Virus record (IMG/VR): IMGVR_UViG_3300023240_000010 | Direction: 5' to 3' (one strand) | Source of the DNA: a virus | Length of the DNA: 64,000 nt | In this document: piece by piece, positions 155 through 20,917 of the stretch | Layout: every line of letters starts with the position of its first letter | Numbering within the stretch: the stretch's first letter is position 1 | The notes under the pieces: generated by a model | Database searches by the model: none | Seen by the model: the letters and a program-made list of their open reading frames with translations, nothing else | What the model was told of the DNA's origin: nothing | Translations under genes and position numbers: made by a program

Positions 155-229
155 ATTATAACATATTCACACAGGGTGTCAACACTTTTCACATTTTTCT
201 CATGAATAGTGATTATTCATCAGATGAAT
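155..229 (-). promoter_or_regulatory. early sigma70-type promoter with upstream ATGAAT-N7-ATTCAT palindrome
   Basis: TTGACA (182-177), 16 nt, TATAAT (160-155); palindrome 202-220. Confidence 0.85.
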
Positions 230-232
230 CTC

Positions 233-787
233 TTAGTAGTACCATGAACGGTAGTGAGTAGCATCAGCAGTAGTCTTTGAAGCACTTGAGTGACTGTAGG
301 TCTTGAAACCACCGTAGTTGTTTAATCTCTTGGTCATCTCTTCACCTCTAAAATCATTAGGAGTAAGACGAACACGTTCACAATCATAACCTTCAGAATC
401 TTTGACAGTAGAATAACCAATCTTACGAACGATTACAGTAGTCGCACTAGGTTTAGCAACAACTTGGTAAGCATCAACATTGGTTTGCTCATAACCCCAA
501 CTGTCAACGAACAAGTCGCCAACTTTAACATCTGCGGCAAGAGCGACTTTCTTTATCTTCTGAGTGATCTTATATTCTTCTTTCGCTTTCTGATTGGCAA
601 TACGGTTTTCGATGAATTGAGTACATACTAGAATCATACGCTCAACACTTTGGTAACGAGTGTGAAACTCGCTCTTGAAACCTAAACGACTTCGTGGAGC
701 AGGACGGTCACAACGAGCAATATTTCTTTCTTCGTCTAGTACAAGGGTAAGACCCTGTTCTTCGTACATCGCAATTAAATCATTCAT
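233..787 (-). CDS. conserved hypothetical phage protein
   Basis: ORF; start MNDLIAM after GAGAGA RBS; SWGYEQTNVDAYQVV motif typical of phage hypotheticals. Confidence 0.75.
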   Translation of the reverse strand: MNDLIAMYEEQGLTLVLDEERNIARCDRPAPRSRLGFKSEFHTRYQSVERMILVCTQFIENRIANQKAKEEYKITQKIKKVALAADVKVGDLFVDSWGYEQTNVDAYQVVAKPSATTVIVRKIGYSTVKDSEGYDCERVRLTPNDFRGEEMTKRLNNYGGFKTYSHSSASKTTADATHYRSWYY

Positions 788-824
788 AATATATTCTCTC
801 TTCATCTCGATTAACTAAGTACTT

Positions 825-893
825 ATTATATCATATCTGGTGTTCTTGTCTACCTTTCTCTCACTTATTTTTAGAACATTTTGTTATAAGAAC
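825..893 (-). promoter_or_regulatory. early promoter with second upstream motif (TTAGA..TTTTGTTATAAGAAC)
   Basis: TAGACA (852-847) / TATAAT (830-825); motif 871-893 shared with 10996 and 21151. Confidence 0.7.
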
Positions 894-901
894 CTGCATT
901 C

Positions 902-1195
902 TTATGCTGCCCACAGAGAAAGAATATTCTTTGATAGTAACACAAGACCAACACCGTTTACACAAATCAATGCTCTATCTTTCCACATGAACGAGACTGC
1001 TAACCACCCGATTAATCCAATGTATGACAAGGCGAGATCGTAGTACATCAATCCCTCAATTCCTCGTACTGACATTGCAGAGAGAACCATAACAGAGGCA
1101 AACCACTTGACATACCAATCAATAGTATACTTTGGTGTTGCCGACTTGAAGATTCGTTTGGAGTTTTTCAACTCTTCGGGGGTGAACTCTGTCAT
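902..1195 (-). CDS. small membrane protein (DUF6552-like)
   Basis: three hydrophobic segments; IDWYVKW and WKDRALI motifs; paralog of 3892..4314. Confidence 0.65.
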   Translation of the reverse strand: MTEFTPEELKNSKRIFKSATPKYTIDWYVKWFASVMVLSAMSVRGIEGLMYYDLALSYIGLIGWLAVSFMWKDRALICVNGVGLVLLSKNILSLWAA

Positions 1196-1198
1196 TAT

Positions 1199-1357
1199 TT
1201 AATACTCTTCATTAAGTTTATATGCACTGTAGACTGCGGCGATTGAACCAATCACACCAAACACTATAGCAGTACTGAGTGGCATACTGTCAGTCTCGAT
1301 TGCACCAACAGCACCCATCATCATCAAACTACCTAATACAAGATTCAGTTTATTCAT
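1199..1357 (-). CDS. small membrane protein (~52 aa, not in ORF track)
   Basis: MNKLNLVLGSLMMMGAVGAIETDSMPLSTAIVFGVIGSIAAVYSAYKLNEEY fills gap, start overlaps upstream stop. Confidence 0.55.
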   Translation of the reverse strand: MNKLNLVLGSLMMMGAVGAIETDSMPLSTAIVFGVIGSIAAVYSAYKLNEEY

Positions 1358-1569
1358 TCTTCATCAAACTCCTCAGGATCTTGAATCACTTGAAACAGAA
1401 TATCCGCTGTAATTCCAATTGTCTTTAGATATGACTCCATATCCTCGGCCTCTTCGCGATCGGCAAACACCATCACATTAGGACGTCCATCCTCTTCATC
1501 GATGTACGCTACTGTCCAAAGCGCATCACCATATTCGACTTTGCCGAACATATCTGAATAATCACTCAT
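1354..1569 (-). CDS. hypothetical acidic protein
   Basis: ORF with AGGTGA RBS. Confidence 0.65.
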   Translation of the reverse strand: MSDYSDMFGKVEYGDALWTVAYIDEEDGRPNVMVFADREEAEDMESYLKTIGITADILFQVIQDPEEFDEE

Positions 1570-1611
1570 ATTATTTCACCTGTATCATGTAAGCGGGTTT
1601 ATTCATCATAA

Positions 1612-1881
1612 TTATACCGCATTGTGAGTAAATCGTGGAAGCAGTCGAAATGGTGCTTGAAAATTCAGTGATTGGTGTTTGATAAGAGGTTCTTCGATTC
1701 CTCTCTCGTCAAGAGCATCAAAGAACAACTGAGCATCACAATCACATTCTAACCAGACTGAAGTCCCGTTAAAGAAGGAGTACTCAGAGATTTTGTTCAT
1801 GAAACCAAGGTTCTCTACAACACTAGCAGGAACTTTGAGGTAAGAATGACTTGGGTCAGATATATAAGTAATTGCTTTCAT
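1612..1881 (-). CDS. conserved hypothetical phage protein
   Basis: DPSHSYLKV...WLECDCDA motif. Confidence 0.7.
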   Translation of the reverse strand: MKAITYISDPSHSYLKVPASVVENLGFMNKISEYSFFNGTSVWLECDCDAQLFFDALDERGIEEPLIKHQSLNFQAPFRLLPRFTHNAV

Positions 1882-2141
1882 TGTTTATCTCCGTAATCTC
1901 CGTAAAATTCTTGGGCAAATCGCATCCATACTTGATCAGTGTTAGGTTCAGTTTGGTAAAGGAAAGAGAAAATGTTGTCAGTCTCTTGTGAGGTATTAGT
2001 GGCATCAACGACGATCATATCAACGTCATCATTGTCATACCAATCTAACTTAGAAGTGAACACATCTGCTACACGATTGAAGTAGAACACGGTAGTATCA
2101 ATCGTCTTGGCATAGTTGAATATTCTGTCTTTCATAATCAT
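1878..2141 (-). CDS. hypothetical protein
   Basis: ORF directly downstream of early promoter. Confidence 0.65.
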   Translation of the reverse strand: MIMKDRIFNYAKTIDTTVFYFNRVADVFTSKLDWYDNDDVDMIVVDATNTSQETDNIFSFLYQTEPNTDQVWMRFAQEFYGDYGDKQ

Positions 2142-2159
2142 CTTCTCTTTATCACTGAA

Positions 2160-2244
2160 TAGGGTACTATTATCTCATGAAATGACAACATAGTCAACAC
2201 TTTTGCCATTTATTTGATGAATACTCATCATTCATCTGATGAAT
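2160..2244 (-). promoter_or_regulatory. early promoter cassette with ATGAAT-N7-ATTCAT palindrome
   Basis: TTGACT (2197-2192), 17 nt, GATAAT (2174-2169); palindrome 2217-2235. Confidence 0.85.
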
Positions 2245-2245
2245 C

Positions 2246-2575
2246 TTACTCAACTCTATCGTGAACTGCAACCGCACCGTAGAACGAACCACCAAGTAAC
2301 TCGTCACAGAGTCTTGAGAACCTTGAGTCAGAACAACCCGCATAGTTCCCACCGAACATCGTCATGTTGTTACCCAACTTTGAAGTCGGAATCAGTCTCA
2401 GGATTTTTTTACCGCCGATGGGTTCTGCCATCACTAGTGTTGCGGACGGGTAGTCGTCACACGGTTCGGATGGTCCTTCTGCATTTACCACAGTGAAACC
2501 TTTTGCGTAACTTGACTCGCCACCTGAGGTGCAGTCGTAATTACCATGCTTATAAATGTTTACGTGAATTCCCAT
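2246..2575 (-). CDS. conserved hypothetical phage protein
   Basis: start MGIHVNIY after GGAGA RBS; DCTSGG...MFGGNYAGCSDSRF...VHDRVE motif. Confidence 0.75.
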   Translation of the reverse strand: MGIHVNIYKHGNYDCTSGGESSYAKGFTVVNAEGPSEPCDDYPSATLVMAEPIGGKKILRLIPTSKLGNNMTMFGGNYAGCSDSRFSRLCDELLGGSFYGAVAVHDRVE

Positions 2576-2600
2576 AATATATCTCCAATAATTTAAGTAG

Positions 2601-2864
2601 TTACGCTGCCTTCTTAATTTCTTCGAAACCTTTTGCTTCAAGGATGAAACGAACTCGCTCACGATCAAGAGAGTCACCGTCACCCCACTCTTCGAATCGA
2701 TCAGGATTGACACAAATATTGAGATAATCGACAATAGCGATCTCAATGTCGGGGATACCACACCCAAGGTCATAGAGACCCTCCTTACCATAGAAAGAGT
2801 GAACATAATCGCGGAAGTCAGCGAGTTGTGGATTCTTAGATAATGCGAAGAAGTTAGTAATCAT
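2601..2864 (-). CDS. hypothetical protein
   Basis: FYGKEGLY...GDSLDRERVR; first gene after promoter. Confidence 0.7.
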   Translation of the reverse strand: MITNFFALSKNPQLADFRDYVHSFYGKEGLYDLGCGIPDIEIAIVDYLNICVNPDRFEEWGDGDSLDRERVRFILEAKGFEEIKKAA

Positions 2865-2958
2865 AATATGTCTCTCTGTCTAATGAGGTACTATTATACC
2901 ATAACTGGAGATGGTGTCAACACTTTTGCCATTTATTTGATGAATACTCAACATTCAT
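2861..2958 (-). promoter_or_regulatory. early promoter cassette with ATGAAT-N7-ATTCAT palindrome
   Basis: TTGACA (2920-2915) / TATAAT (2898-2893); palindrome 2940-2958. Confidence 0.85.
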
Positions 2959-2963
2959 GGAAC

Positions 2964-3320
2964 TTATGACGATGGGTATTTCCACCAGACGAATGTCGCG
3001 ACTAGTGCCATAGTAATACCGGCATAGATTACTGCTTTGATATTAGGTACAGTGTAGTACATAATAATGAGGGAAGATGACATCATAACGACCATGCCGA
3101 TCTTTGCTTTGACAGGGAATATCTTCTTCTCTTTCCAGTTGGTAAGAAACTCACCGAACCAGGGATGATTATATAACCACTTCTCCATTCGAGGACTAGA
3201 CTTCGAGAAGCAATAGACTGCACCCAACAGAAAGTGACTGAATGGAATTCCAGGTGTGATGAAACCAACATATGCTAATACAACACACAACCAACCTAAA
3301 CCCATCCAGAAGTATTTCAT
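2964..3320 (-). CDS. ybaN: YbaN/DUF454 family inner-membrane protein
   Basis: LGWLCVVLAYVG..PGIP...F...A.YCFSKSSPR...WL.NHPWFG signature. Confidence 0.85.
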   Translation of the reverse strand: MKYFWMGLGWLCVVLAYVGFITPGIPFSHFLLGAVYCFSKSSPRMEKWLYNHPWFGEFLTNWKEKKIFPVKAKIGMVVMMSSSLIIMYYTVPNIKAVIYAGITMALVATFVWWKYPSS

Positions 3321-3574
3321 TTGTATTTTATTCCTAATTGTTTTAAAAAGATTCTTTTAAATAGCGAAGGTTTCTCGTCATCATTAACTACTACATTATT
3401 GAGGTTAACGGTATAGTTCATAGAGGTAGCATAAGTCTCATCGATGAAGCATAAACCACCACCATTGATCGATGTTAAAGAATTTGAGTAATCTGGTTGC
3501 GGTTGTTCTTGAGTAACATCTAAACACAGTTGATCAGGGAATTTGTCGTAAAATCTAAACTGTTGTTGTATCAT
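3317..3574 (-). CDS. hypothetical protein
   Basis: ORF coupled between iscA and ybaN; start uncertain. Confidence 0.5.
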   Translation of the reverse strand: MIQQQFRFYDKFPDQLCLDVTQEQPQPDYSNSLTSINGGGLCFIDETYATSMNYTVNLNNVVVNDDEKPSLFKRIFLKQLGIKYK

Positions 3575-3890
3575 AATAAAAACTCTCTCCACATCCACAT
3601 TCGCCAGTTACATTAGGGTTGACGAACTGAAACCCTTCATTGAATCCTTCGACAGTATACTCCAATCTTGTTCCTTGTAGAAACAATATACTTTTGGGAT
3701 CAACCACTAAAGAAACTTCCTCTAGTGGAATAATTATATCATCATCGTTTCTTACATAAGAGTATTCCATCTCATAGGCGTATCCACTACAACCTGCTTT
3801 GTTTACTTTTACTCGAATATCACAATCGGTACGTCCCTCAAGACGTTTACGCAATACATCTAGTGCATCGGGTGTTGATGTTATTGACAT
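3555..3890 (-). CDS. iscA: iron-sulfur cluster assembly accessory protein (IscA/HesB family)
   Basis: GCSGYAY motif, VDPKS..FL.GT.L.Y, C-terminal NPN...CGCGESF. Confidence 0.92.
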   Translation of the reverse strand: MSITSTPDALDVLRKRLEGRTDCDIRVKVNKAGCSGYAYEMEYSYVRNDDDIIIPLEEVSLVVDPKSILFLQGTRLEYTVEGFNEGFQFVNPNVTGECGCGESFYYDTTTV

Positions 3891-3891
3891 G

Positions 3892-4314
3892 TTAAACTTG
3901 CTCCACTAAAACTTCTACTAAGGACATTAAGACCGCAGTGCCGCTTATAGCACTACCAATCATAATCGCTTTGTCATTCCAACAATGACCCACATACACC
4001 CAACAAGTCGCGGCAGATGCATAACATATCTGACCTGCTGTGCCAAACCCTGCACTCATAATGAATACTCCAACCACACCAAGTATAGTTGCTACCCACT
4101 TGACATAACTATCAACGGTTCCTGTAGGAGTTGCAGGTTTTAAATCCTCGACTTCTGATTGAAGTACTTCTAACTCTTCCTTAAGTCTTTTACGCTCGAC
4201 ATTAAGTTCCATTGCAAGTCTACCTGCTTTAGACATTGTACTGCCAGAGAACTCCGCTTGAACTTCAGGACTAAGTTGACCCTCGACTCTTGCAACTCGT
4301 TCATCTTCGTTCAA
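3892..4314 (-). CDS. membrane protein (DUF6552-like) with N-terminal coiled coil
   Basis: VDSYVKWVAT...WNDKAIM; paralog of 902..1195. Confidence 0.6.
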   Translation of the reverse strand: MNEDERVARVEGQLSPEVQAEFSGSTMSKAGRLAMELNVERKRLKEELEVLQSEVEDLKPATPTGTVDSYVKWVATILGVVGVFIMSAGFGTAGQICYASAATCWVYVGHCWNDKAIMIGSAISGTAVLMSLVEVLVEQV

Positions 4315-4505
4315 TCTTCAACTCCGAAATGTTCTCTAACCGCATTACCCGCAGAGCGATAGTAATCATAGTCACTTGCCACGGCAGAACATTCCTGTAT
4401 AATCAACTTAGCGAATTCCGCAGATTGTCGAGTAGGCATATCACAACCACAACTGCACATTTCTAATCCAGACTGTAAAGCAAGTTCTTTTATTCGTTCG
4501 TTCAT
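4311..4505 (-). CDS. hypothetical protein
   Basis: MNERIKELA...FAKLIIQEC...EHFGVE, a common phage hypothetical pattern. Confidence 0.65.
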   Translation of the reverse strand: MNERIKELALQSGLEMCSCGCDMPTRQSAEFAKLIIQECSAVASDYDYYRSAGNAVREHFGVED

Positions 4506-4804
4506 AATCCTATTAATCCTAATCCATGATTTGCTATTGCATTTAGTATTATAGTAACACAAGTTACCATGTGAGTCAACCACCATAGTGTACGAATACT
4601 AGCAACAGTGTTTGCTTGCTTGTCTGTCTCACCGACTTTCTCACCTAGACTCTTTGCCCAGATTCTCCACCATTTGCTCAAGTTCTTTTACTCTCTCTTC
4701 TAATTGATTGATGTATTCTTCTACTATCTCTCTCTCGCAGAGAGTCTTACAACAAATAGAGATGTGTTGCTTTGCTCTTACTTCCAAACTTTTCTCACCA
4801 CGTC

Positions 4805-5134
4805 TCATAGTAGTTTACTCCAATCAGTATCTTCGGGCATCATTTGTACTTGCCCTTCGAATTGCTGTTGTTCTCTTAACTGATTATAGATACCTGCGTT
4901 ATTCATACGCAAACCATAACCTTCTTTGCTACATCTGTAGAGTGACCCGCTTTCACCATGAAAATGAATTTCATCTTCACGATCAAACACAAGAGTAATA
5001 CCACTGTTAATTCGCCAACTGTCACCACCTAAGTAACCACCACTCCATCCTCCTAATACTTTGTAGAAAGGGAATGTGCCTTTGCCTTCTTTGATCTTTA
5101 GTACTACCCAGTTGTCTGGCGTATATTCACTCAT
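4805..5134 (-). CDS. conserved hypothetical phage protein
   Basis: YTPDNWVVLK...YKVLGGWSGGYLGGDSWRINSGI...G.SGS.Y.C motif seen in T4-like phages. Confidence 0.8.
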   Translation of the reverse strand: MSEYTPDNWVVLKIKEGKGTFPFYKVLGGWSGGYLGGDSWRINSGITLVFDREDEIHFHGESGSLYRCSKEGYGLRMNNAGIYNQLREQQQFEGQVQMMPEDTDWSKLL

Positions 5135-5502
5135 TTCGACTCCAACCATTTTATTTTATGACCTGATTTTGTTTCGAAGTGATTAATCAAATCATCGTAT
5201 GACATTAAATCACTAGACTCATAGTCATAAAGAAAATCAGATAATATATTCCAAGATTCAGTCTCCATAACACCTAGACCATACTCACATCCACCATCGT
5301 AATATTCTTGCTCATCGAGACCACGAATATCAATACGTCCACAAGCATATGTAATACTTGGTGTTCTTGAAATGTAGGTTTCTCCTGCCTTCGATTTCAT
5401 AAAACTACTATATACCCGTTCCTCTTCGATCATTGGGATATTGTTATCTTCGTACCAACGAGTCGTTACTGGACCCATCCAGTTTGTGCTATAACTAATC
5501 AC
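5131..5502 (-). CDS. hypothetical protein
   Basis: likely GTG start (MISYSTNWMGP) overlapping upstream stop. Confidence 0.6.
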   Translation of the reverse strand: MISYSTNWMGPVTTRWYEDNNIPMIEEERVYSSFMKSKAGETYISRTPSITYACGRIDIRGLDEQEYYDGGCEYGLGVMETESWNILSDFLYDYESSDLMSYDDLINHFETKSGHKIKWLESK

Positions 5503-6457
5503 CGTAGTACTCCATGTACCACTCGTAGAATTTAGCAACACCTTCTTCAACATCAACCTTCGGAGCATATCCTAGTTTAGCAAGTTTCGTTGTATCTGAC
5601 CATGTTTCAAGAGCATCAGCAGGATGTGGAGCGCGAAGGTCTTGTAATGATTTCTTGCCCGTACACTTCACAATCTCATTGATGAAGTCTATTAGACCCA
5701 CCTGCTTTCCATTACCAATATTGAATATCTCGCCAGATTCAATCTTATCATTCTCAATCACTATCTCAATGCCGTCAAGTATATCATCAACGTAGGTGAA
5801 GTCTCTCTTCATGTTACCCCAGTTATACACCGTGATACGTTCACCCGCTAGAATCTTCTTGGTGAAATCGAACAGTGCCATGTCAGGTCTGCCCCACGGT
5901 CCATAGACTGTGAAGAATCTCAGTCCAACATTATTCAGACCGCTGATCTTGAACATACATTCGTTAGCATACTTGCTGTATGAATACGCATTCAACTGGT
6001 GCGCTTGAACATTGTCCTCTTTCCAAGGAAGTTCTTTAGTGCTACTGTACACGCTAGACGTAGACGCATAGATCACCCGAATGTCGGGTAAATATGTCTG
6101 AAGCAATTCAATGATATTTTGTGTACCGTCAATGTTGTTCTTGTGATATTCACTTTCTTTACCAAACGAATCGCGCACCCCCGCCATAGCACCGAGATGA
6201 ATAACCTGGTCAGGCATAAAGTCAACAAAAGTTTTACGAAGATGACGAATGTCTCCTGATGCGAAATCACAATTAGTAACAGGAATCTTTAGTGCCTTTA
6301 CTCGATCATATTTAAAGGATGCATCGTACAAGTGGGAGTTGAAGTTGTCGATACCTAACGCTTCGTAACCCTTAGCATTCAATCGAGCGACCAGTTGTGA
6401 CCCAATGAAACCGGCACCGCCAGTTACGAGTATTTTATTTCCCTTTGAAGTAGTCAT
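5495..6457 (-). CDS. NAD-dependent epimerase/dehydratase, UDP-glucuronate 4-epimerase-like
   Basis: TGGAGFIG, ASTSSVY, YSYSK (YxxxK), LRFFTVYGPWGRPDMA, RDFTYVDD. Confidence 0.92.
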   Translation of the reverse strand: MTTSKGNKILVTGGAGFIGSQLVARLNAKGYEALGIDNFNSHLYDASFKYDRVKALKIPVTNCDFASGDIRHLRKTFVDFMPDQVIHLGAMAGVRDSFGKESEYHKNNIDGTQNIIELLQTYLPDIRVIYASTSSVYSSTKELPWKEDNVQAHQLNAYSYSKYANECMFKISGLNNVGLRFFTVYGPWGRPDMALFDFTKKILAGERITVYNWGNMKRDFTYVDDILDGIEIVIENDKIESGEIFNIGNGKQVGLIDFINEIVKCTGKKSLQDLRAPHPADALETWSDTTKLAKLGYAPKVDVEEGVAKFYEWYMEYYGD

Positions 6458-6650
6458 ACATATCCCATATAGCGTGGAGAGTTAGCATAACGCCCAGAAA
6501 AATCATGAATGGAGTTTCAGCAATTATCAAGACTGCGAACGCAAGAAATGCACCGAAGAAGTGTTTAAGAACTCGCGCATTCTCAAGAGTCTGAAACGCC
6601 TTAATCTTCTGAACAGCGGTGTTGTAAATTATTTTAAAAGTTTCTTTCAT
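6435..6650 (-). CDS. small membrane protein
   Basis: two hydrophobic segments; coupled ORF. Confidence 0.6.
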   Translation of the reverse strand: MKETFKIIYNTAVQKIKAFQTLENARVLKHFFGAFLAFAVLIIAETPFMIFLGVMLTLHAIWDMYDYFKGK

Positions 6651-7087
6651 TTGTTTGTACCTGTAGTATTAAATCTCATGTAGTGCAATCTCTCACCACC
6701 TTCTTGCAACCACGACTCGTTGAGTGTGATGATCGGATCATTGTTAGAATTATGTTTCACCGTAGTTCTCTCTGCATGGAAGTCTTCACCGACAAGATTT
6801 AAGCGAATAGGAGTTTCCCAACCCTCTATCCACTTACTAGTGTCGTAATCATCATCTACTAATTGTTGCTGTAGAATATGCGTAGAGAAGTAATCGTCCG
6901 AAGACTCGATTGCTGTCTCTGCTAACTGCCAGAACGCCTCATCACGTCCCTGCGCAACAGTTACGTTCTCTATGATGTATGTATTACCGCCCTTATTCTT
7001 CCAATACTGAGGACACTCGGTAGTAGAATCGACCCAATCATGAGCGCCATAGTTCTCTCTATCTTGACACATCATTAAAATTTTCAT
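6647..7087 (-). CDS. conserved hypothetical phage protein
   Basis: Q.RENYGAHDW....CPQYWKNKGG motif. Confidence 0.75.
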   Translation of the reverse strand: MKILMMCQDRENYGAHDWVDSTTECPQYWKNKGGNTYIIENVTVAQGRDEAFWQLAETAIESSDDYFSTHILQQQLVDDDYDTSKWIEGWETPIRLNLVGEDFHAERTTVKHNSNNDPIITLNESWLQEGGERLHYMRFNTTGTNK

Positions 7088-7380
7088 GCTTTCTTCCTCG
7101 CTTTAAAACCTTTGACTTCCATCGCTTGCATCGGACTAGTTTGTTTACTTAGTTCAATGTACTCTTCGATGGTGAAGTTCTTAACTAGGAAGTTAACCCA
7201 CGACTTCCAAGGTTTGCTACCATACTTGAATCGTGCAACAAAAGTACGTTCGGGCATACCGTACCAAGATGGGTGACAGTCAGGAGACACTTGCTCCATA
7301 GTGCGAGAACCTTCGAACGCGCCTTGATACATCAAGTACATGCCGTCCCAAGTGAAGTTTTCTTTAGTAAATGCAGTCAT
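7084..7380 (-). CDS. conserved hypothetical phage protein
   Basis: FVARFKYG...FLVKNFTIEEY motif; first gene after promoter. Confidence 0.75.
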   Translation of the reverse strand: MTAFTKENFTWDGMYLMYQGAFEGSRTMEQVSPDCHPSWYGMPERTFVARFKYGSKPWKSWVNFLVKNFTIEEYIELSKQTSPMQAMEVKGFKARKKA

Positions 7381-7401
7381 AACATATCTCTCTCATCTGA
7401 T

Positions 7402-7478
7402 TAGGGTACTATTATCTCATGAAATGACAACATAGTCAACCTAATTAGCATTTATCTCATGAATACTCACTATTCATG
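7402..7478 (-). promoter_or_regulatory. early promoter cassette with ATGAAT-N7-ATTCAT palindrome
   Basis: TTGACT (7439-7434) / GATAAT (7416-7411); palindrome 7459-7477; 39 bp identical to 2160-2198. Confidence 0.85.
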
Positions 7479-7487
7479 GAAGTTATA

Positions 7488-7841: not shown

Positions 7842-7881
7842 TTACTCAAAAGTTAATATTCATAATAAAAGCGTTAAGTGC

Positions 7882-7910
7882 ATTATACTAGGATTTGGAG
7901 GGGATGTCAA
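7882..7910 (-). promoter_or_regulatory. early promoter
   Basis: TTGACA-17-TATAAT. Confidence 0.75.
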
Positions 7911-8380: not shown

Positions 8381-8384
8381 AAAC

Positions 8385-8439: not shown

Positions 8440-8451
8440 TTCAGAAGTTAA

Positions 8452-9580: not shown

Positions 9581-9612
9581 AATATATCTCTCTTTCGCAT
9601 TAATGAAGTGTT

Positions 9613-10907: not shown

Positions 10908-10916
10908 GGTAGTTAC

Positions 10917-11023
10917 TCTCTCTGTCTAATGAGGTACCATTATATCACGAGAGAGTAACATCCACAAGCATTATTATGATTTAATAACACTATTTTTAGA
11001 GTATTTTGTTATATGTTTATAAC
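10917..11023 (-). promoter_or_regulatory. early promoter cassette with GTTATA-N4-TATAAC palindrome
   Basis: TATAAT 10944-10939; leader nearly identical to 2871/16166; palindrome 11008-11023. Confidence 0.65.
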
Positions 11024-13662: not shown

Positions 13663-13719
13663 CACTAACTCCTCATAATATATGATATTATAACACATCC
13701 CTGTGTTATATGCAACCAT

Positions 13720-13971
13720 TTATTTAAACAGTTCGTCGTACAGTGCTTCGAGGTCCTCGTAGTCTGCCTTAACATCATTCATCGATTGCTTATGATAGAT
13801 CACCGCAAGTTTACGAATCTGCTTCTTATCGACACCAGTATTTTCGAACGTCACCTGAACGATGTCTTTCTGCAAATCTTTCTCTGCATCAACACGTAGC
13901 ATCGAATCGGACAACTCTTTGATGGCGTCTTTTACTTTCTTACGGTCTTCTGGACTACTAATCATTTTCAT
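13720..13971 (-). CDS. DsbA-like dsDNA-binding protein (T4 DsbA/GapR-like)
   Basis: IKELSDSMLRVDAEKDLQKDI...IRKLAVIYHKQ...LYDELF. Confidence 0.7.
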   Translation of the reverse strand: MKMISSPEDRKKVKDAIKELSDSMLRVDAEKDLQKDIVQVTFENTGVDKKQIRKLAVIYHKQSMNDVKADYEDLEALYDELFK

Positions 13972-13992
13972 TCTCTCATTATTAAATTAAAT

Positions 13993-14472
13993 TTACTTAC
14001 GTTTATACCAAGAGGCAAAAGTGTATCTTGTTCCCTCTGTAATTGGTGTTACTTTGTGCCAATAGTGTATTCCATCATAGAATACAATACGTCCCTTCTT
14101 TGGTGCTACCGTTGTTCCATCAGCAAACTCAGTAAACCCACCTTCGAAATCATCATTCAAATACAATATCGAGGTGAAAACTGTGTGCTTACTTGCTACA
14201 TCACTGTGCAGATTCATGAAAGTACCTAGCGACCATTCATAGATTTGTGCCCAGTGTACCTTACTTTCTGCTAGTTGCTGTGCCTCAATGTTCTGCTTAT
14301 CCCAAACATGTGCTATCAACTCATTTAAGGGTGAATCTTCGCCACAGTCAAGATTGTTATACTTGCAATTCTTGAATGCGGGTTTAGATTCACCTGCATT
14401 ATAATAATCTATTAACAAGTCAGCGATATGTTCTTCGATGAAATTGTCGATTATTATAATCTTTTTAGACAT
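13993..14472 (-). CDS. 2OG-Fe(II) oxygenase
   Basis: HSD, ILYLNDDFEGG, PKKG..V.Y, H.V.PI..G.RY. Confidence 0.9.
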   Translation of the reverse strand: MSKKIIIIDNFIEEHIADLLIDYYNAGESKPAFKNCKYNNLDCGEDSPLNELIAHVWDKQNIEAQQLAESKVHWAQIYEWSLGTFMNLHSDVASKHTVFTSILYLNDDFEGGFTEFADGTTVAPKKGRIVFYDGIHYWHKVTPITEGTRYTFASWYKRK

Positions 14473-14846
14473 TACCAAGTCAACTCGATACGCGAATCTG
14501 CCTTACCGTTCCAGTTCACTTGAATACCACACTCTGCGAAGATAGGCAACACTTCGATGAGATTTTTAACACCCTCTTCACTTCCGCTGAAACAAAACAG
14601 ACTTTCGTTGGTCGAATCAGTGGTGTGGAAGTGCCGGTCCCACTCCATTTCATCATCATCATCATCATCATAATCCACTTCTTCTTCGATGTCCTGCTCA
14701 TGATTGAACAATACCTTCTCGAGATCAATATCATCTTCGCAGGATACTTCATCCCATGCGCAAGTCTGACAGCAAGGTAAACCCCAAGCACAATACCAAC
14801 CATCTCTGCGTAGTCGTACAAATGCTCTTTCTAAGTTATTCATCAA
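14472..14846 (-). CDS. hypothetical protein (DUF6891-like)
   Basis: AF..LR..G.......CCQTCAW...W.G....RI. Confidence 0.55.
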   Translation of the reverse strand: MMNNLERAFVRLRRDGWYCAWGLPCCQTCAWDEVSCEDDIDLEKVLFNHEQDIEEEVDYDDDDDDEMEWDRHFHTTDSTNESLFCFSGSEEGVKNLIEVLPIFAECGIQVNWNGKADSRIELTW

Positions 14847-15081
14847 GACCTAACTCCCTTCTCTTCAGAGCAAAGTTCTGCTCTAATACTCGCCATAGAT
14901 TTTCAAACCTAATAGTTGATATTTGATGTAACCCTAACAATGCATTCTGTATCTCATCTTCTGACATAGTTTCGGTCGCATGGTAAATATCATTAATATC
15001 ATCTACAGTCTGCCACGCTTTCATAACATAGGTTTCAAGATCATGCAAGGTATTCTCTTCGCTTCTAAACTTCTCCATCAT
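14836..15081 (-). CDS. hypothetical protein
   Basis: DLE..M.AW..VDD...NALLGL......RFE.LW pattern. Confidence 0.65.
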   Translation of the reverse strand: MMEKFRSEENTLHDLETYVMKAWQTVDDINDIYHATETMSEDEIQNALLGLHQISTIRFENLWRVLEQNFALKRRELGLDE

Positions 15082-15460
15082 TCATCTCCCGTTGTCCAAT
15101 TTCATCTTCCATACAGTTGCGAAATTCTGGTCGAATACCAGGTATCTTTACCACTGCTTCAAGATGAGCAGTATCCATTTCAGCAATAGTTACAAATTTA
15201 AGTGGTTGATCACCATTGATACCATACGTTCCCCACTTCAGTATTTCTCGCTGTACAGAATGTGGTTCATCATCATACAGACTCATTTCAATATAAGGAG
15301 CAGAGTCGTGTTGATTACGTCTGCCATAATCTAATCCACCATCAACCATATAAGTCAACCCATTGGCATCCTTATACGTTTTATAGTCGTGCCGATGTGT
15401 CGATTCTAAGATCGTGCCATCAGGTGTTTGAATTGCATTGCGAATAAGATTCGGGGGCAT
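15065..15460 (-). CDS. conserved hypothetical phage protein
   Basis: NAIQTPDGTILES.HRHDY, YMVDGGLDY.RR, WGTYG.NGDQPL. Confidence 0.8.
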   Translation of the reverse strand: MPPNLIRNAIQTPDGTILESTHRHDYKTYKDANGLTYMVDGGLDYGRRNQHDSAPYIEMSLYDDEPHSVQREILKWGTYGINGDQPLKFVTIAEMDTAHLEAVVKIPGIRPEFRNCMEDEIGQREMNDGEV

Positions 15461-15462
15461 AA

Positions 15463-15873
15463 TTATACCATCTTATCAAAGGGGAAACAATCAAGAAAGA
15501 GTTCACGTTCAAGGCGATACGCTTCTTTCTCCCAAGGTTGGTTAGTGTAAGCGTAGTTGTCAGCATTGCGACCCTTCCACTTCCACACACCGTCGGCGCT
15601 CAACTCACCGCGTAGAAACTGTCGAGCATGTACCATCTCGTGTGCGAGTGCTTGCATCTGTTCAAGGAAAGTCTGTCCTTTCTTACCGATCTGAATGTAG
15701 GCATAATCTGTGTCGCCCTCACACAGACCTTGAGCATAGTTAGGCAGTTCAGATTTGAACTTGATAGTCACCAACTTAGAAGTGAATCGATGAATTTTTA
15801 GAGCACCCATAAGACGCGCAACATACTCTTCGACTATTTCTGGTTTGGCATGACGACCTTCAATACTAAACAT
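15463..15873 (-). CDS. HEXXH metallopeptidase-like protein
   Basis: LAHEMVHARQF.RGEL...Y..QPWEKEAY. Confidence 0.8.
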   Translation of the reverse strand: MFSIEGRHAKPEIVEEYVARLMGALKIHRFTSKLVTIKFKSELPNYAQGLCEGDTDYAYIQIGKKGQTFLEQMQALAHEMVHARQFLRGELSADGVWKWKGRNADNYAYTNQPWEKEAYRLERELFLDCFPFDKMV

Positions 15874-15906
15874 AACAACACTCTCTCTCACTCAATTTGT
15901 ACAACG

Positions 15907-15935
15907 ATTATCTCACAATCTTACGATGATGTCAA
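15907..15935 (-). promoter_or_regulatory. early promoter
   Basis: TTGACA-17-GATAAT. Confidence 0.7.
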
Positions 15936-15940
15936 CACTT

Positions 15941-16159
15941 TTATGCGGGTTGATGCACATCAATTGTATCGATAATCTTATTAAGTACCGCAGGATTCTT
16001 ACATGCTAGATAGACCAGCATAGACTGAAGATAACCAACTGTATAGTTAGCATCATGAATATCAAACTCATTAGCACCTGACTCTGCGATGAGGTCAGTC
16101 ATTTGTTGAACTAGTTTCTGAACTTTATCAACGGCAACTGCATTCTGTATAAATTTCAT
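15941..16159 (-). CDS. hypothetical protein
   Basis: first gene after promoter cassette; Y.VGYLQSM motif. Confidence 0.65.
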   Translation of the reverse strand: MKFIQNAVAVDKVQKLVQQMTDLIAESGANEFDIHDANYTVGYLQSMLVYLACKNPAVLNKIIDTIDVHQPA

Positions 16160-16253
16160 AATATGTCTCTCTGTCTAATGAGGTACTATTATATCATACT
16201 GGCGAATATAGTCAATAGATTAATCATTTATTTGATGAATAGTCATCATTCAT
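16156..16253 (-). promoter_or_regulatory. early promoter cassette with ATGAAT-N7-ATTCAT palindrome
   Basis: TTGACT (16215-16210) / TATAAT (16193-16188); palindrome 16235-16253; 38 bp identical to 2861-2898. Confidence 0.85.
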
Positions 16254-16533
16254 CGGATTTATGGTCTATCGGAGTTATGCCGATCTTCATAATTCTCTTG
16301 TCACTTATGTCGGTTAAGTATGAATTATCTTCTCGAAACATGGCGTATGCCTCCCTATTAGACAATGCTCTATGAGATACTATCTGCTCACCTAACCAGT
16401 CTTGTGAAAACTCTTTTGCTTCTTCCATCACCACGGTGTCACATGCCCATTCTTCAGGAGAATCATCCTCTAACTCAACACAATATCTCATTCTATAGGT
16501 GCTTATACATTCTACCATCACTAACTTAGTCAT
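16246..16533 (-). CDS. conserved hypothetical phage protein
   Basis: VMVECIS.YRMRYCVE...WA.DTV...EA.EFSQ.WLGEQIVSHR. Confidence 0.7.
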   Translation of the reverse strand: MTKLVMVECISTYRMRYCVELEDDSPEEWACDTVVMEEAKEFSQDWLGEQIVSHRALSNREAYAMFREDNSYLTDISDKRIMKIGITPIDHKSDE

Positions 16534-16729
16534 TCCATTCTCCAAATATAGAGGGTGCTAGTTTTTGCGCCTCTTCCATATGGTATTCGCCGGGATAGTG
16601 CTTCAAGCAACTGTATGCTTGTTTACGTATAGCACTCGGTGCCCTGGGTGTCTTCTTTGGATCCATCAAGTCAATTAGAAATTGTCTAGTATAGTTTACT
16701 GCTCTCCGTCTTTCGTTTGGCATTGTCAT
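16526..16729 (-). CDS. BPSL0761-like small protein
   Basis: MTMP.ER.RAV...RQFL..L..P..TPR.P..IR..A...LKHYP. Confidence 0.75.
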   Translation of the reverse strand: MTMPNERRRAVNYTRQFLIDLMDPKKTPRAPSAIRKQAYSCLKHYPGEYHMEEAQKLAPSIFGEWND

Positions 16730-16730
16730 A

Positions 16731-16898
16731 TTATTTTTCTCTAGTAATGAACACCTTTAGTGTACGATTATCATCTTGTAGACTATAACTGATATTTTCA
16801 CGAGCGTCCATGTAATTAACGTATGATCGCCCATGCTGATCTATCACTTCGAATCGCGTAATTTTCTGGTATGCTGCCACTATTTCACTGTCGGTCAT
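16731..16898 (-). CDS. hypothetical protein
   Basis: ITRFEVID..GRSYV...SLQDDNRTLKVFI. Confidence 0.65.
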   Translation of the reverse strand: MTDSEIVAAYQKITRFEVIDQHGRSYVNYMDARENISYSLQDDNRTLKVFITREK

Positions 16899-17335
16899 TA
16901 TATTTTCTCCACTGCAATGCCACACTTATTCAGAAATATTTCACCTTCGTTAGTTCTTAAATGAGGTGTATTATAATATACGTAATTTATTCCAGATTGA
17001 TATATTAACTTAGCACATTCTAAACAAGGAGCAGTCGTGGTATATAATGATGCGCCTTCGGTCGATTCAGATGATCGAGCAACCTTAGTGATTGCATTTG
17101 CTTCTGCATGAAGAACTTCGTCTTTGGTGACTAGTTTTCTACCGTAACCTGTGTTGCCAGTCTTTACTTCATGTTCGCATACATTATCCCAACCACTAGG
17201 CATACCATTGTATCCTATTGAGATGATGCGGTTATCCTTAACAATAACGCAACCAACTTTCAGTCGTACTGCATGTGACAGTTGTGCATAGGTTGACGCA
17301 ACTGCCATATGTGCTAAGTCCCATTTATCAATCAT
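16898..17335 (-). CDS. cd: dCMP deaminase
   Basis: KVGCVIVKD.RIISIGYNG, HAEANAI, PCLECAK zinc ligands. Confidence 0.93.
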   Translation of the reverse strand: MIDKWDLAHMAVASTYAQLSHAVRLKVGCVIVKDNRIISIGYNGMPSGWDNVCEHEVKTGNTGYGRKLVTKDEVLHAEANAITKVARSSESTEGASLYTTTAPCLECAKLIYQSGINYVYYNTPHLRTNEGEIFLNKCGIAVEKI

Positions 17336-18441
17336 AATTCTAAGTCTAATTTTTCCCAAGGCAAATCTGCTTTGCCGAAATGACCGTAGTTGGTCGTAAG
17401 GTCTAATTGTAACATAAACAGATTGAACTTGTCAATGATTCCTTTTGGTGTCAGGTCAACTTTTTCACGAATCAGTGCCGCTAGATCGTTTCTAACCTTA
17501 CCGTCAGCAAATACGTGTAGACTTGTTGGTTCTTTCACACCAATCGCATAACTTAATTGAACAGTACAAGTGTCAGCAAAGGTTGAGGCAACAATGTTTT
17601 TAGCAAGATATCTCGCCATATATGCGCCACTTCTATCGACTTTAGTACAGTCTTTACCGCTAAACGCTCCACCTCCGTGTGGTGCGTATCCACCATAGGT
17701 GTCTACGATGATCTTTCGACCAGTTACGCCTGTATCACCGTCTGGACCACCAATGATGAATCTACCAGTCGGATTGATTAAGAACTCTGTATCTTCATCG
17801 AAGTAACCAGTAATTGCCCGCTTGACAATCTGAGTGATGAACGTCCGAATAATATCGAATGGATAATCTTCTGTGTGTTGACTACTGCAAACAACTTTAC
17901 TAATGCGTAGAGGAGTGCCATCATCGTTGTACTCCATCGTCACCTGTGCTTTAGCATCAGGACCCAGATATTCAGCACGACCACTCTTTCGTTCTTCGGT
18001 CAATAGTTGAAGTATCTTGTGACTGTGATATATCGCACTCGGCATATAATCTTCGGTCTCGGTACACGCATAACCAAACATCAGACCCTGATCACCAGCA
18101 CCAAAGTCATCAGTGCCTAAAGCAATAACAGCACTCTGTCCATGGATAAGATTGACAACATCTAGCGGATCCCAATGAAAATTCTTTTGCTCGTACCCAA
18201 TCTCTGCCACAACACGACGAACAATACCTTCAATTGTATGGCGAGTTTTCATCGACATAGGAGTATCACTTTTATATTCGCCCGCAACTACCACTGTATT
18301 GCTAGTCACTAGGGTTTCGATTGCCGCACGATTGTTTGGGTTCTTGTCAATAAGAAAATACGCGATACTATCAGATATAAGATCCGCTATTTTATCTGGA
18401 TGCCCCTCGCTAACACTCTCGCTGGTAAACTCATAACTCAT
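17332..18441 (-). CDS. metK: S-adenosylmethionine synthetase
   Basis: FTSESVSEGHPDK, GAGDQGLMFGYA, GGGAFSGKD.TKVDRS, YGHFG. Confidence 0.97.
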   Translation of the reverse strand: MSYEFTSESVSEGHPDKIADLISDSIAYFLIDKNPNNRAAIETLVTSNTVVVAGEYKSDTPMSMKTRHTIEGIVRRVVAEIGYEQKNFHWDPLDVVNLIHGQSAVIALGTDDFGAGDQGLMFGYACTETEDYMPSAIYHSHKILQLLTEERKSGRAEYLGPDAKAQVTMEYNDDGTPLRISKVVCSSQHTEDYPFDIIRTFITQIVKRAITGYFDEDTEFLINPTGRFIIGGPDGDTGVTGRKIIVDTYGGYAPHGGGAFSGKDCTKVDRSGAYMARYLAKNIVASTFADTCTVQLSYAIGVKEPTSLHVFADGKVRNDLAALIREKVDLTPKGIIDKFNLFMLQLDLTTNYGHFGKADLPWEKLDLEL

Positions 18442-18547
18442 TATTCTTCATCCTTACTTTTTATTTTCCCTATTAGATACAACAATTCATCTATTGATTC
18501 CAGATCTCCTTCATCATTAGTATCGATCTCGACCTCTATCTTGATAA

Positions 18548-18748
18548 TCATGCAGTGTACCATTCCCTAACTAGGCGCATAGCATCGATCTGTTGTCGAA
18601 TCAATACAGCATCTTTCACTGGATCGTCATCAAATATTGTCATACAGAGTGGATGCTTGTTTGCTCTGAAGTCATCAATCTGGCGAGTCAACTCTTGCAC
18701 CATAATAGCATCGACTTGCTCATGTTCCAATTCAATATTAATCGACAT
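18548..18748 (-). CDS. hypothetical protein
   Basis: coupled ORF. Confidence 0.6.
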   Translation of the reverse strand: MSINIELEHEQVDAIMVQELTRQIDDFRANKHPLCMTIFDDDPVKDAVLIRQQIDAMRLVREWYTA

Positions 18749-19010
18749 TGAGAATCACCTTAATATGATCGTATCCAACAACCGCTAACTTTACTCCATC
18801 ATTTTCGAATGGCATTGCTTTAGTCCAATCAAGAATCACCTTGATACCAGGAACAATATATTCACACTCAGCACCAACAGCAACCACTTCAGCAGGTTTA
18901 TTACCCGTTGTAATATCACCCGATAGAATAATACCGCTTGCTAACTGGGTATCTGCCACTGCAACTTCCTTTACTACTACATAATAACTCATTACTAACA
19001 TATTACTCAT
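18738..19010 (-). CDS. GroES-like co-chaperonin
   Basis: VVVKE....T..ASGIIL mobile loop, A.VVAVG. Confidence 0.75.
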   Translation of the reverse strand: MSNMLVMSYYVVVKEVAVADTQLASGIILSGDITTGNKPAEVVAVGAECEYIVPGIKVILDWTKAMPFENDGVKLAVVGYDHIKVILNVD

Positions 19011-19105
19011 CATCATCTCCGTCGTTTTCTTTTAAATCAAATGCTAACCATGCAAACAGTAAAACTACCATTACTATCATTCCTAAATATTGTCCGGAAC
19101 TCCAC

Positions 19106-19321
19106 TCACTTACTAATTCGATGTTCATTATCCTTATCTTCGCTAAAATGCTCCTTTGTAAATTGCACAGGATTCTTCAGAAACTCTTTATCCTCATCCT
19201 GCAGAATCTCATTCCAGTACCCTTTAGCAAGCATGGGTAACCAAACGAATATCCATTTGTAACCAAACCATATCATAAAGGGCATCATAATCCATTCAAT
19301 AGTACTAAACTCTTGCATCAT
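19106..19321 (-). CDS. small membrane protein
   Basis: Trp/Phe-rich hydrophobic segment. Confidence 0.55.
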   Translation of the reverse strand: MMQEFSTIEWIMMPFMIWFGYKWIFVWLPMLAKGYWNEILQDEDKEFLKNPVQFTKEHFSEDKDNEHRISK

Positions 19322-20112
19322 ATATTCCTATTTCTTTCGTTCGCTTCAACTACATTTTCAAGGAACGCCATATCAGTTCCCAACTCTTTGCCTACCTGAA
19401 TCATTGCACTCATGTCTTTGGGGAAACAATGTCCACCGTAACCGAACTCGCCATCAGGACCAGGCACTTGTGTGTGAGAGTCAGATACTCTCGGATCTAA
19501 ACATAACGCATCAATAATACAATCATAGTCTGCACCACCATCGCCATGACTGCCACCTCTATAATCATCGAGTACTTGCCACATCTGATTAAAGAATGAT
19601 ACTTTGGTCGCCAAATAACAGTTGAGGAAGTATTTAGTGAATGCTGCCTGAGATGCTGTACTCAAGAATCGAACATCTTTCAGATTAGGCATAACTGGTT
19701 TAAGCAGTTCGTGCCAATACCTCATCTCACCACCACCGTAGACCGCAAACTCTGAATCAGTGAAGTCTTTGAGATAGTTGAAACTAGTCGTACCACGAAT
19801 GTACTCAGGACTAAATGTGATGTTTTCATCACGGATGTCAAAGAAGACTGGATCAGTTGTTGACTTCACCAAATACTTTGTACCGCCATACTTAGCAAAC
19901 ACCTCTTCTAATGCAGTCGTATCGCACTTGCCGTCATCGCCTTGAGGAGTAGCAACACACACGATTACACCTTCGACGATTAATTCATCATCAACATAGA
20001 AACCCTTGTAAGGATCATCGATAAGAAGTTCAATCTTAGGATGGTCTTTTAGTGCCGCGTATATCGCTTGTCCGACTGGACCATAACCCGCAATTACAAT
20101 TTTCTTGCTCAT
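19318..20112 (-). CDS. UDP-glucose/GDP-mannose dehydrogenase family protein (lacks C-terminal domain)
   Basis: GYGPVG, VCVATP, KST, FSPEY, K...N.YLATKVSFFN, DPR, GYGGHCFPKD with catalytic Cys. Confidence 0.88.
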   Translation of the reverse strand: MSKKIVIAGYGPVGQAIYAALKDHPKIELLIDDPYKGFYVDDELIVEGVIVCVATPQGDDGKCDTTALEEVFAKYGGTKYLVKSTTDPVFFDIRDENITFSPEYIRGTTSFNYLKDFTDSEFAVYGGGEMRYWHELLKPVMPNLKDVRFLSTASQAAFTKYFLNCYLATKVSFFNQMWQVLDDYRGGSHGDGGADYDCIIDALCLDPRVSDSHTQVPGPDGEFGYGGHCFPKDMSAMIQVGKELGTDMAFLENVVEANERNRNI

Positions 20113-20409
20113 CTATTCCTCACCTAGAAAGTTCTCTATTTTGTTGCCGCCTACTTTATCTATATTGGTGCTTAATCTGTACAAATGCTTCAGCAAAAAG
20201 TAGTACGTGTCCCAGATTAACATGGGTAGAAAAAGCATTATAACTTTATGTTGTCGTTTCATGACACATCCTTTTCATAAATTTCAATATTCTCAGCAGG
20301 AACATTCAGAGCAATCAGATTACGTCTCATCTGTTCGGGATCTGATACGTTCCATACAATGTGTCTCTCACCTAAACTGTCGATATATTCGAGATTCATT
20401 ACGTTCATT

Positions 20410-20814
20410 TTATGCTGCCTTCTTCAGTTCAAGGGGAGTATAGATGTAAGGAGTGTTGTAGTTTCCAACATTCATAGAGAGGTAGTGACTGACGTGGAAG
20501 TAATCAGTCATTGCATCAGATTCATCGAAGAAGTCTGGTCCTTTCATCGCATCTTTCAGTTCAGTCAGGAACGCAACAACAGTGGCATCATCATAGTTCT
20601 CTTTGATCCAGTGTTCGTTGACTTGAATGTAATCACGCGGTCCGTACTCACTGACAGGCAAAGAACCGAGGATGTCTAAAGCACCACTCTTGATGTTTAC
20701 AACCAACACGCTGTGGTGACGAACGGCAATACTACCTTTCATGTTGTACTTCTTGAGGACTGCTTTGATAGCAGGAGCGAATTCTTTTTTCATTTCTTGA
20801 CTTACATACGCCAT
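20410..20814 (-). CDS. conserved hypothetical phage protein
   Basis: MAYVSQE.KK..AP.IKAVLKKY.MKGSI...SDAMTDYF. Confidence 0.8.
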   Translation of the reverse strand: MAYVSQEMKKEFAPAIKAVLKKYNMKGSIAVRHHSVLVVNIKSGALDILGSLPVSEYGPRDYIQVNEHWIKENYDDATVVAFLTELKDAMKGPDFFDESDAMTDYFHVSHYLSMNVGNYNTPYIYTPLELKKAA

Positions 20815-20850
20815 AATCATATCTCTCAGTAATCGTTCGAATCAGGTGCT

Positions 20851-20917
20851 ATTATATCAATGTTTGCTTGGTCTGTCAACACTATCCACATTTTTATTGT
20901 GAATAGTGATTATTCAT
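20851..20917 (-). promoter_or_regulatory. early promoter with (G/A)TGAAT-N7-ATTCAT palindrome
   Basis: TTGACA (20879-20874), 17 nt, TATAAT; palindrome 20899-20917. Confidence 0.85.

Follow-up and report, generated by a model that had tools for sequence, protein, structure and literature searches.

Genome context of the window

The window analysed here is the whole 64,000-nucleotide stretch of the IMG/VR virus record IMGVR_UViG_3300023240_000010. The element in question is an ATGAAT-N7-ATTCAT palindrome that stands upstream of six minus-strand promoters, each within a repeated cassette (class 1). T4-type core genes were recognised by PHROG and Pfam matches between 23 and 64 kb, including gp43 DNA polymerase, gp41 helicase, gp46, uvsW, the gp23 major head protein, the gp20 portal, the gp18 sheath, the gp17 terminase and gp15. 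The major capsid protein shares 69% identity with that of Phage C48C1, and 60-62% with those of Methylophilales phage Melnitz and Pelagibacter phage HTVC008M. Judging by the core-gene matches and the capsid relatives, the source is a T4-like marine myovirus that has not been cultured; Melnitz and the pelagimyophages are among its relatives.

The region from 1 to 23 kb is the variable early region, with about 60 small minus-strand open reading frames (ORFs) of mostly unassigned function. The auxiliary genes within it include an epimerase, DUF932, MetK, a UDP-glucose dehydrogenase-like gene, peroxiredoxin, dCMP deaminase, MazG and DsbA. All six class-1 cassettes lie among these small ORFs within 1-21 kb, and none was found in the 21-64 kb of the window that carry the replication and structural genes. 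The genes flanking the cassettes are every one of unknown function, in agreement with the initial annotation of this DNA. A DNA search of the phage collection returned nothing past one epimerase gene, and the palindrome has no copy in C48C1, the closest cultured phage.

Relatives were gathered by pattern and profile searches, and about 1.5 Mb of related DNA was covered. They comprise the IMG/VR contigs G001-G005 and G009, together with the more distant lineages in which the cassette occurs, namely G006 (L113), G007 (L139 contig), G008 (L055), L386 and L410. The metagenome contigs L419, L426, L472, L487, L504, L505 and L527 were found by a promoter-only pattern, in which the palindrome was left unspecified. 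Among 80 gp41 relatives (894 kb), the palindrome is present only in L030 and L055. The contigs of about 150 kb behind L419, L460 and L474 (Ga0209816_1000015, OSJC01000024.1 and OBMK010000019.1) are probably near-complete genomes of this phage lineage. The L419 locus is 95% identical to the window across 2.8 kb and holds one additional class-1 cassette (L419:2258), which has no counterpart in the window.

The class-1 cassettes

The window was scanned with the pattern ATGAATNNNNNNNATTCAT allowing at most one mismatch, and the significance was assessed by 100 shuffles. Eight matches were obtained against 0.65 expected, and no shuffle reached eight (0/100). Exact copies start at 202, 2217, 2940, 7459 and 16235, and a copy with one mismatch at 20899, which confirms the six palindromes of the initial annotation at their coordinates. 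The other two one-mismatch matches (54186 and 56184) are inside late genes and look like chance.

The order of elements on the minus strand is the same at each site. The stop codon of the upstream ORF lies 5-13 nucleotides (nt) before the palindrome or, in one case, within it; the palindrome is followed by 19 A-rich nt with an invariant AAATG, and then by the -35 box TTGAC(A/T). Further downstream are 16-17 nt, the extended -10 element TGn(T/G)ATAAT, about 20 nt, a GAGAGA ribosome site and the ATG; the promoter is of the sigma-70 type and close to consensus. The consensus ATGAATR-NTSRS-TATTCAT describes an A/U-rich stem of 7 bp with a loop of 5 nt, and it is followed by a sequence (..AWAAATG..) resembling an upstream promoter (UP) element. 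The repeated module is the entire stretch of about 100-110 bp from palindrome to start codon (alignment A1, 65% mean column identity). The 19-nt distance between palindrome and TTGAC(A/T) is exact at all six sites, as had been claimed; however, because the entire stretch is a repeated module, this distance is partly inherited with it and does not represent six independent coincidences.

Cassette 1 (123..232) contains a half-site at 224-229, the palindrome at 202-220, the A-rich 19 nt at 183-201, the -35 box TTGACA at 177-182, the -10 box TATAAT at 155-160, the Shine-Dalgarno (SD) sequence at 132-141 and the ATG at 123-125. Its gene runs past the window start, and orthologous copies of the cassette occur in G003 and L472. 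Cassette 2 (2139..2245), of which identical copies exist in G001/L504, heads ORF 1878..2141; it has a half-site at 2239-2244, the palindrome at 2217-2235, the -35 box TTGACT at 2192-2197 and the -10 box GATAAT at 2169-2174. The third half-site (ATTCAT-CTG/CAG-ATGAAT) that had been noticed in two copies is accordingly present at 224-229 and 2239-2244. Cassette 3 (2862..2963) heads ORF 2601..2864, with the palindrome at 2940-2958, 5 nt after the stop of ORF 2964..3320, the -35 box at 2915-2920 and the -10 box at 2893-2898. Cassette 4 (7378..7487), with copies in the metagenome loci L419, L487 and L527, carries the palindrome at 7459-7477, the -35 box TTGACT at 7434-7439 and the -10 box GATAAT at 7411-7416, and heads ORF 7084..7380. 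Cassette 5 (16157..16253) heads ORF 15941..16159 (-35 box 16210-16215, -10 box 16188-16193). Its palindrome (16235-16253) does overlap a stop codon, as reported earlier, namely that of ORF 16246..16545 at 16246-16248. Cassette 6 (20818..20922) heads ORF 20410..20820; its palindrome at 20899-20917 reads ATGAAT..ATTCAC on the minus strand, and the -35 and -10 boxes are at 20874-20879 and 20851-20856. All six cassettes are on the minus strand, as is every ORF of this region.

Stop codons stand in several frames at the 5' edge of the class-1 cassettes (197-220 and the other five sites). TGA forms palindrome positions 2-4 in every copy, and T-R-R at positions 6-8 is a stop codon (TAA, TAG or TGA) in 13 of 17 distinct copies and is TGG in none; the third frame is often closed by CATAAG or CTGA just upstream of the palindrome. 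These stop codons would close any gene joined to the cassette, which would be another reason for A or G at position 7.

In cassette 6 (20880-20906), the sequence TGTGGATAGTG abutting the -35 box is an inverted copy of the right arm and loop, CACTATTCACA, and the pairing of the two gives an alternative 11-bp hairpin. The G007 copies have GAATAGTR at the place corresponding to TGTGGATAGTG. These sequences suggest that part of the palindrome was duplicated to give rise to the 19-20-nt spacer. A DnaA box was also considered for the TGTGGATAG sequence before the -35 box of cassette 6; the resemblance is absent from the other copies, and the candidate was rejected.

Conservation and spacing of the palindrome

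The ten core positions TGAAT/ATTCA are constant in all 15 palindrome copies of alignment A2. Over 20 distinct copies with the 19-nt spacing, the mean column identity is 1.00 for the left arm and 0.97 for the right arm, and the corresponding values are 0.75 (N7), 0.76 (19-nt spacer) and 0.56-0.64 (flanks); the arms are conserved and the loop is semi-variable, as had been stated. The orthologues of cassette 6 in G002, G004, G005, G009 and L410 share about 77-95% DNA identity; loop, spacer and outer pair have changed among them, and their core arms are the same. Part of the arm invariance is due to ascertainment, several of the searches having specified the arms. The promoter-only search yielded eight class-1 cassette occurrences, all eight with exact cores; an alternative compensated stem was not seen in any cassette. 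Judged from the aligned copies, the palindrome is under a constraint of its own. The initial annotation had allowed for a mere copy-paste relic, in which the spacer of the relatives would be as conserved as the arms; the values for spacer (76%) and arms (1.00/0.97) do not agree with this.

The distance between palindrome and TTGAC is 19 nt in about 15 distinct copies, 20 nt in three (two in G007, and L386), 9 nt in two (G006) and 8 nt in G008. These four spacings probably reflect just one or two indel events. In L113 (1068-1100) and L055 (16310-16345), the AAATAAATG block is missing, which leaves just 8-9 nt between the palindrome and TTGAC; in L113, the palindrome also lies directly 3' of a tRNA-Pro gene (992-1068) and not of an ORF. 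The AAATAAATG tract sits at a fixed position relative to the -35 box, which partly explains the constant spacing. The pattern AAATAAATG-N9/10-TTGAC-N18/19-ATAAT was found in more than 120 viral contigs of many kinds (loci L296-L413), often as AAATAAATGAAAATAA. By estimate it is far above chance, and it represents a common UP-element-like design of strong phage promoters. As a marker of the family the tract was therefore rejected, being widespread in many unrelated viral contigs.

An extra ATTCAY is present 3 bp upstream of the palindrome in two copies of the window and in G006, G008, L410 and L505. Two complete palindromes stand in tandem in L505 (3430-3475), 3 bp apart and about 22 bp from centre to centre. 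Degenerate copies with the right arm only were found before intact promoters (G001 23372/L330/L385, and G001 27760), and therefore the promoter does not need the palindrome.

Hairpin potential of the palindrome

Every copy is predicted to form a stem of 7-8 bp with a loop of 3-5 nt. At position 7 stands A or G, and its partner, position 13, is always T, so that A-U occurs in six rows of A2 and G-U in nine, and A.C never. Only two changes were seen in the core, both of them A>G in the left arm: ATGGAT in L386, and CTGAGT in G002_359, which has a 10-nt loop. In both cases the wobble pair of the sense RNA is kept and the dyad of the DNA is broken. In G006_151, the outer pair is a compensated G...C. 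For 17 copies, the sense hairpin was more stable than the antisense one in 12, less stable in two and equal in three. This stem variation is one-sided, as would be expected of a hairpin rather than a symmetric dimer site, although the core of 5+5 bp is itself symmetric.

The possibility of an intrinsic terminator was rejected, since the stem contains a single G-C pair and the sequence after it, CAAATAAATG, has no U-run. A scan of the minus strand for canonical terminators found none in 1-20 kb, which agrees with the earlier observation that no U-tract follows the palindrome. No Rfam RNA family matched the window at the gathering score.

The class-2 cassettes

Two other minus-strand cassettes carry a different palindrome. 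The cassette at 803..904 heads ORF 233..805, and consists of the palindrome TAAGAA-N6-TTCTTA (887-904), the TAACAAAATGTTCTAA motif, the -35 box TAGACA (847-852) and the -10 box at 825-830. The cassette at 21097..21184 heads ORF 20923..21099, with the palindrome at 21167-21184, the -35 box at 21137-21142 and the -10 box at 21114-21119. The class-2 palindrome is followed by TAACAAAAYRWTCTAA before the -35 box, and a related form is present near 10916-10959. The promoters at 7882, 15907 and 41530 lack the class-1 palindrome, as had been noted; yet those at 825-852, 21114-21142 and near 10916-10959 carry this second upstream palindrome or motif. Both classes of palindrome occupy the same place upstream of the promoter. 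An alternative class-2 palindrome is GTTATA..TATAAC, and classes 1 and 2 are mutually exclusive. In the relatives, the left arm of class 2 varies (GTTATAA or ATAAGAA) and TTATAAC is kept; the stem is broken (TTGTTA) in G002/G005.

Gene shuffling at the cassettes

The window was compared with G001 and G003 (78-98% DNA identity), and also with L426 and L504. The rearrangements between the window and G001/G003 start and stop at the cassettes. For example, G003 has a single unit of the cassette-3 type directly before the gene MKDRIFNYA; the counterpart in the window comprises cassette 3, ORF 2601..2864, ORF 2246..2575 and cassette 2, followed by the MKDRIFNYA gene. ORF 2601..2864 is missing from G001/L504, where the join is at the common ATATTATG around the start codon, and cassette 3 in G001 directly heads the next gene. 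G003 also has an insertion between the stop of ORF 233..805 and cassette 1, which brings a class-2 promoter with it and also a copy of ORF 2246..2575 (78% identical); the corresponding junction in the window shows a GAGA microhomology about 10 nt before the palindrome. The gene behind cassette 1 of the window is driven by a class-2 cassette in G001, and in L426 cassette 2 heads an unrelated gene. The cassettes themselves are mosaic: of the four ways in which spacer and promoter-core types could be combined, three were found (a1b1, a1b2 and a2b1). The modules are paralogous and mosaic, and they form the seams where relatives insert, delete and reorder whole genes.

These comparisons also bear on the initial proposal that the palindrome marks a specific subset of early genes. 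The palindrome is always linked to a promoter, which agrees with it; however, it marks the end of a cassette, and the same gene is found under the other class in G001.

Relationship to PeSL cassettes

Promoter-early stem-loop (PeSL) cassettes have been described in the T4-type phages RB49/phi1 (Arbiol et al. 2010, PMC2839356), and a later paper also reports them in PST/T4 and nt-1/KVP40 (Comeau et al. 2014, PMC4122927). As described in the two papers, a PeSL combines a strong, sigma-70-like early promoter (AT-rich region, -35 and -10 boxes, SD sequence and start codon) with a stem-loop that immediately precedes it; PeSLs cluster in hyperplastic regions, comprise several subclasses and are found at the indels that separate close T4-type phages (PMC2839356, PMC4122927). 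Recombination between neighbouring cassettes, which gives mini-circles, is also a published feature.

The sequence-level features of PeSLs were all found here: the T4-type genome, the module layout, the stem-loop upstream of the promoter, the hyperplastic location and the indels at the cassettes. As in the PeSL-bearing phages, a T4-like myovirus carries a repeated intergenic module (stop, stem-loop, AT-rich region, sigma-70 promoter, SD and ATG) in several subclasses per genome, and the two cassette classes of the window therefore fit the published subclass notion. The modules likewise lie among small ORFans of a variable early region, gene insertions, deletions and swaps occur at them, and the stem is conserved within the lineage. 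There are also differences. The stem here is A/U-rich, weak and 7 bp long with one G-C pair, unlike the G(n)/C(n) stems of RB49. However, published stems vary, with G(n)/C(n) in RB49 at one end and AGNA/TCNT in PST at the other (PMC4122927), so an A/U-rich stem is within the known range. The stem-loop of PeSL211/210 of RB49 terminates or attenuates upstream transcription (PMC2839356), whereas no terminator activity is predicted for the palindrome here. Unlike in PeSLs, about 20 copies have letter-perfect arms, the spacing from the -35 box is quantised (8/9/19/20 nt), and extra half-sites and tandem copies occur; the host is a marine bacterium.

On these grounds, the cassettes are a new member of the PeSL kind and not a new regulatory system. 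The six sites are probably the stem-loop ends of PeSL-type cassettes, with the palindrome serving chiefly as a sense-strand hairpin and a block of homology. By analogy with tested PeSLs, the palindrome might act mainly as a hairpin of the sense strand, either in read-through RNA or in single-stranded DNA, and this hairpin might insulate the promoter unit from upstream transcription through pausing, attenuation or 3'-end formation. The invariant blocks (arms, TTGAC and ATAAT) would supply short homologies for cassette recombination, and the fixed 19-nt distance may result from the descent of the module together with the fixed position needed by the UP tract.

Several observations weigh against this assignment of function to the hairpin. 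Its stability is low (-2 to -5 kcal/mol for the 19-mer), and the fold z-scores of the surrounding 56-nt stretches are just -1.3 to -2.5. Covariation is insignificant, as five of the eight pairs never vary and 164 of 500 shuffles reach the observed score. The absence of a U-tract after the palindrome counts in the same direction, and the invariance of the arms beside a variable loop is more than pairing alone needs. The spacings cluster at 8-9 and 19-20 nt, about one helical turn apart, which fits a face-of-helix constraint. Finally, no palindrome copy without a promoter was found in the related DNA (about 1.5 Mb); an element concerned purely with 3' ends could be expected to stand by itself in places.

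Alternative explanations

The initial annotation favoured the geometry of a dimeric activator or repressor. The symmetric core and the spacings of about one helical turn agree with this part of the proposal; the one-sided variation and the persistence of promoters behind decayed copies do not. It might be argued that the palindrome is a duplex operator for a dimeric regulator of the phage or the host, centred near -63/-64 upstream of the UP tract, and that the cassette merely carries it. In favour of this, the core arms are invariant next to a less conserved N7 (75%) and 19-nt spacer (76%), and TTGAC lies at one of four distances (8, 9, 19 or 20 nt) from each genuine copy. Five lineages have extra half-sites 3 bp upstream, with a full tandem palindrome in L505, and the hairpin appears too weak to act alone. 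Candidate DNA-binding proteins in the early region, which are candidates by family match only, include a small DsbA-family protein (13720..13971, minus strand; Pfam PF11126, E 3e-15), a WYL_2-domain protein (21182..21439, minus strand), and PHROG matches to 'transcriptional regulator' and 'DNA binding protein'. However, DsbA of T4 binds late promoters and is not known to bind such sites. From centre to centre the half-sites are separated by 13 bp, which is awkward for a helix-turn-helix dimer, and the asymmetric variation (position 7 may be G but position 13 is never C, and A>G changes are limited to the left arm) is not predicted for a symmetric dimer. Some promoters of the family have been retained although the left arm upstream of them has decayed (G001 23372 and G002 359), and one gene is served by either cassette class, which argues against a gene-specific regulon. 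No known motif fits, neither a regulator nor a host regulon was linked to the palindrome, and a literature search for a TGAAT/ATTCA operator found nothing relevant. A host regulon scan over one genome per prokaryote species gave at least 120 scattered single matches over all phyla, with no clustering among the matches listed, which is weak evidence. An operator of this kind is rather unlikely, though a serious rival. The ARG boxes bound by ArgR have the half-sites TGAAT/ATTCA and also form tandem palindromes 3 bp apart, with a period of about 21-22 bp; their half-sites are separated by N4 in an 18-bp box. The likeness in half-sites and tandem arrangement is evident, and the ARG box was nevertheless rejected because the spacer here is N7 and the 18-bp geometry does not agree.

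In a wider sense, the palindrome could be read sequence-specifically by an unnamed protein, either as a duplex (a phase-dependent activator or a shut-off repressor) or as a nut-like RNA hairpin with a pentaloop; this is plausible, though less likely than not. The boxB hairpins of lambda nut are short stems with a pentaloop of semi-conserved sequence in early transcripts, and they need a protein partner. A speculative likeness to them lies in the short stem and the semi-conserved pentaloop, which would also need such a partner; in contrast to boxB, the hairpins here are upstream of promoters, at gene ends. To our knowledge, neither an N-like protein nor a boxA is known for this phage. If a sequence-specific reader does exist, the PeSL cassettes of the marine lineage would carry a regulatory switch besides the promoter.

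The host protein Fis has also been considered, with the palindrome as a Fis-type site upstream of a UP element that copies the layout of rRNA P1. Its centre near -64 is about 7 bp off the Fis site of rrnB P1, which is centred at -71, and the host may be without Fis. The Fis motif has a 15-bp core G-N13-C, Y-R steps at +/-3-4 and T/A at +/-8, and it needs an A/T-rich centre free of guanine amino groups (PMC4784862). All rows of A2 fit the core, the steps and the T/A positions, and the site is directly followed by an A-rich tract of the UP type and by a consensus promoter, an arrangement that resembles Fis site I with the UP element of rrnB P1-type promoters. However, the central 5 bp (NTSRS) have 2-3 G/C pairs in nearly all copies, and the invariant A-A at -6/-5 and the outer A/T are left unexplained. 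The palindrome thus differs from the rrnB P1 site in its G/C-containing centre, in the conservation of positions that Fis does not read and in its position. Because the centre fails the motif, Fis was rejected as the reader, and it is the least probable of the explanations weighed here.

Two other explanations are based on recombination. The palindrome might be a dedicated recombination site, in which a folded strand or cruciform is read by a phage recombinase, like the integron attC at the 3' ends of cassettes. It follows each gene's stop codon immediately, the homology between some cassettes starts in the loop or the left arm (G001 23372), and the tandem and partial palindromes look like unequal exchanges. 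The PeSL authors had also raised this possibility and mapped one crossover to the loop (PMC2839356). However, the junctions mapped here are mostly elsewhere, namely at ATATTATG near the start codon, between the -10 box and the SD sequence, and at GAGA about 10 nt upstream of the palindrome, and no integrase-like gene was seen among the early ORFs; such a site is very unlikely. Alternatively, the palindromes might have no function of their own, their likeness being kept up solely by gene conversion and recent duplication among the cassettes, which are clearly paralogous and recombine. Degenerate copies also stand beside working promoters. However, the loop and flanks have diverged repeatedly and the arms have not, even between orthologues of about 77-90% DNA identity and in lineages with other spacing, which makes this explanation highly improbable.

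Significance for T4-type phages

The assignment to the PeSL kind extends these cassettes, so far described in T4-type phages that infect enterobacteria and vibrios, to a T4-like lineage of uncultured marine phages. The cassettes described here provide clean natural examples of the gain, loss and re-wiring of single genes. The PeSL authors left open what the stem-loop does. The letter-perfect, weak palindrome with its quantised spacing offers a handle on this role, whether as a terminator, a protein site or a recombination signal.

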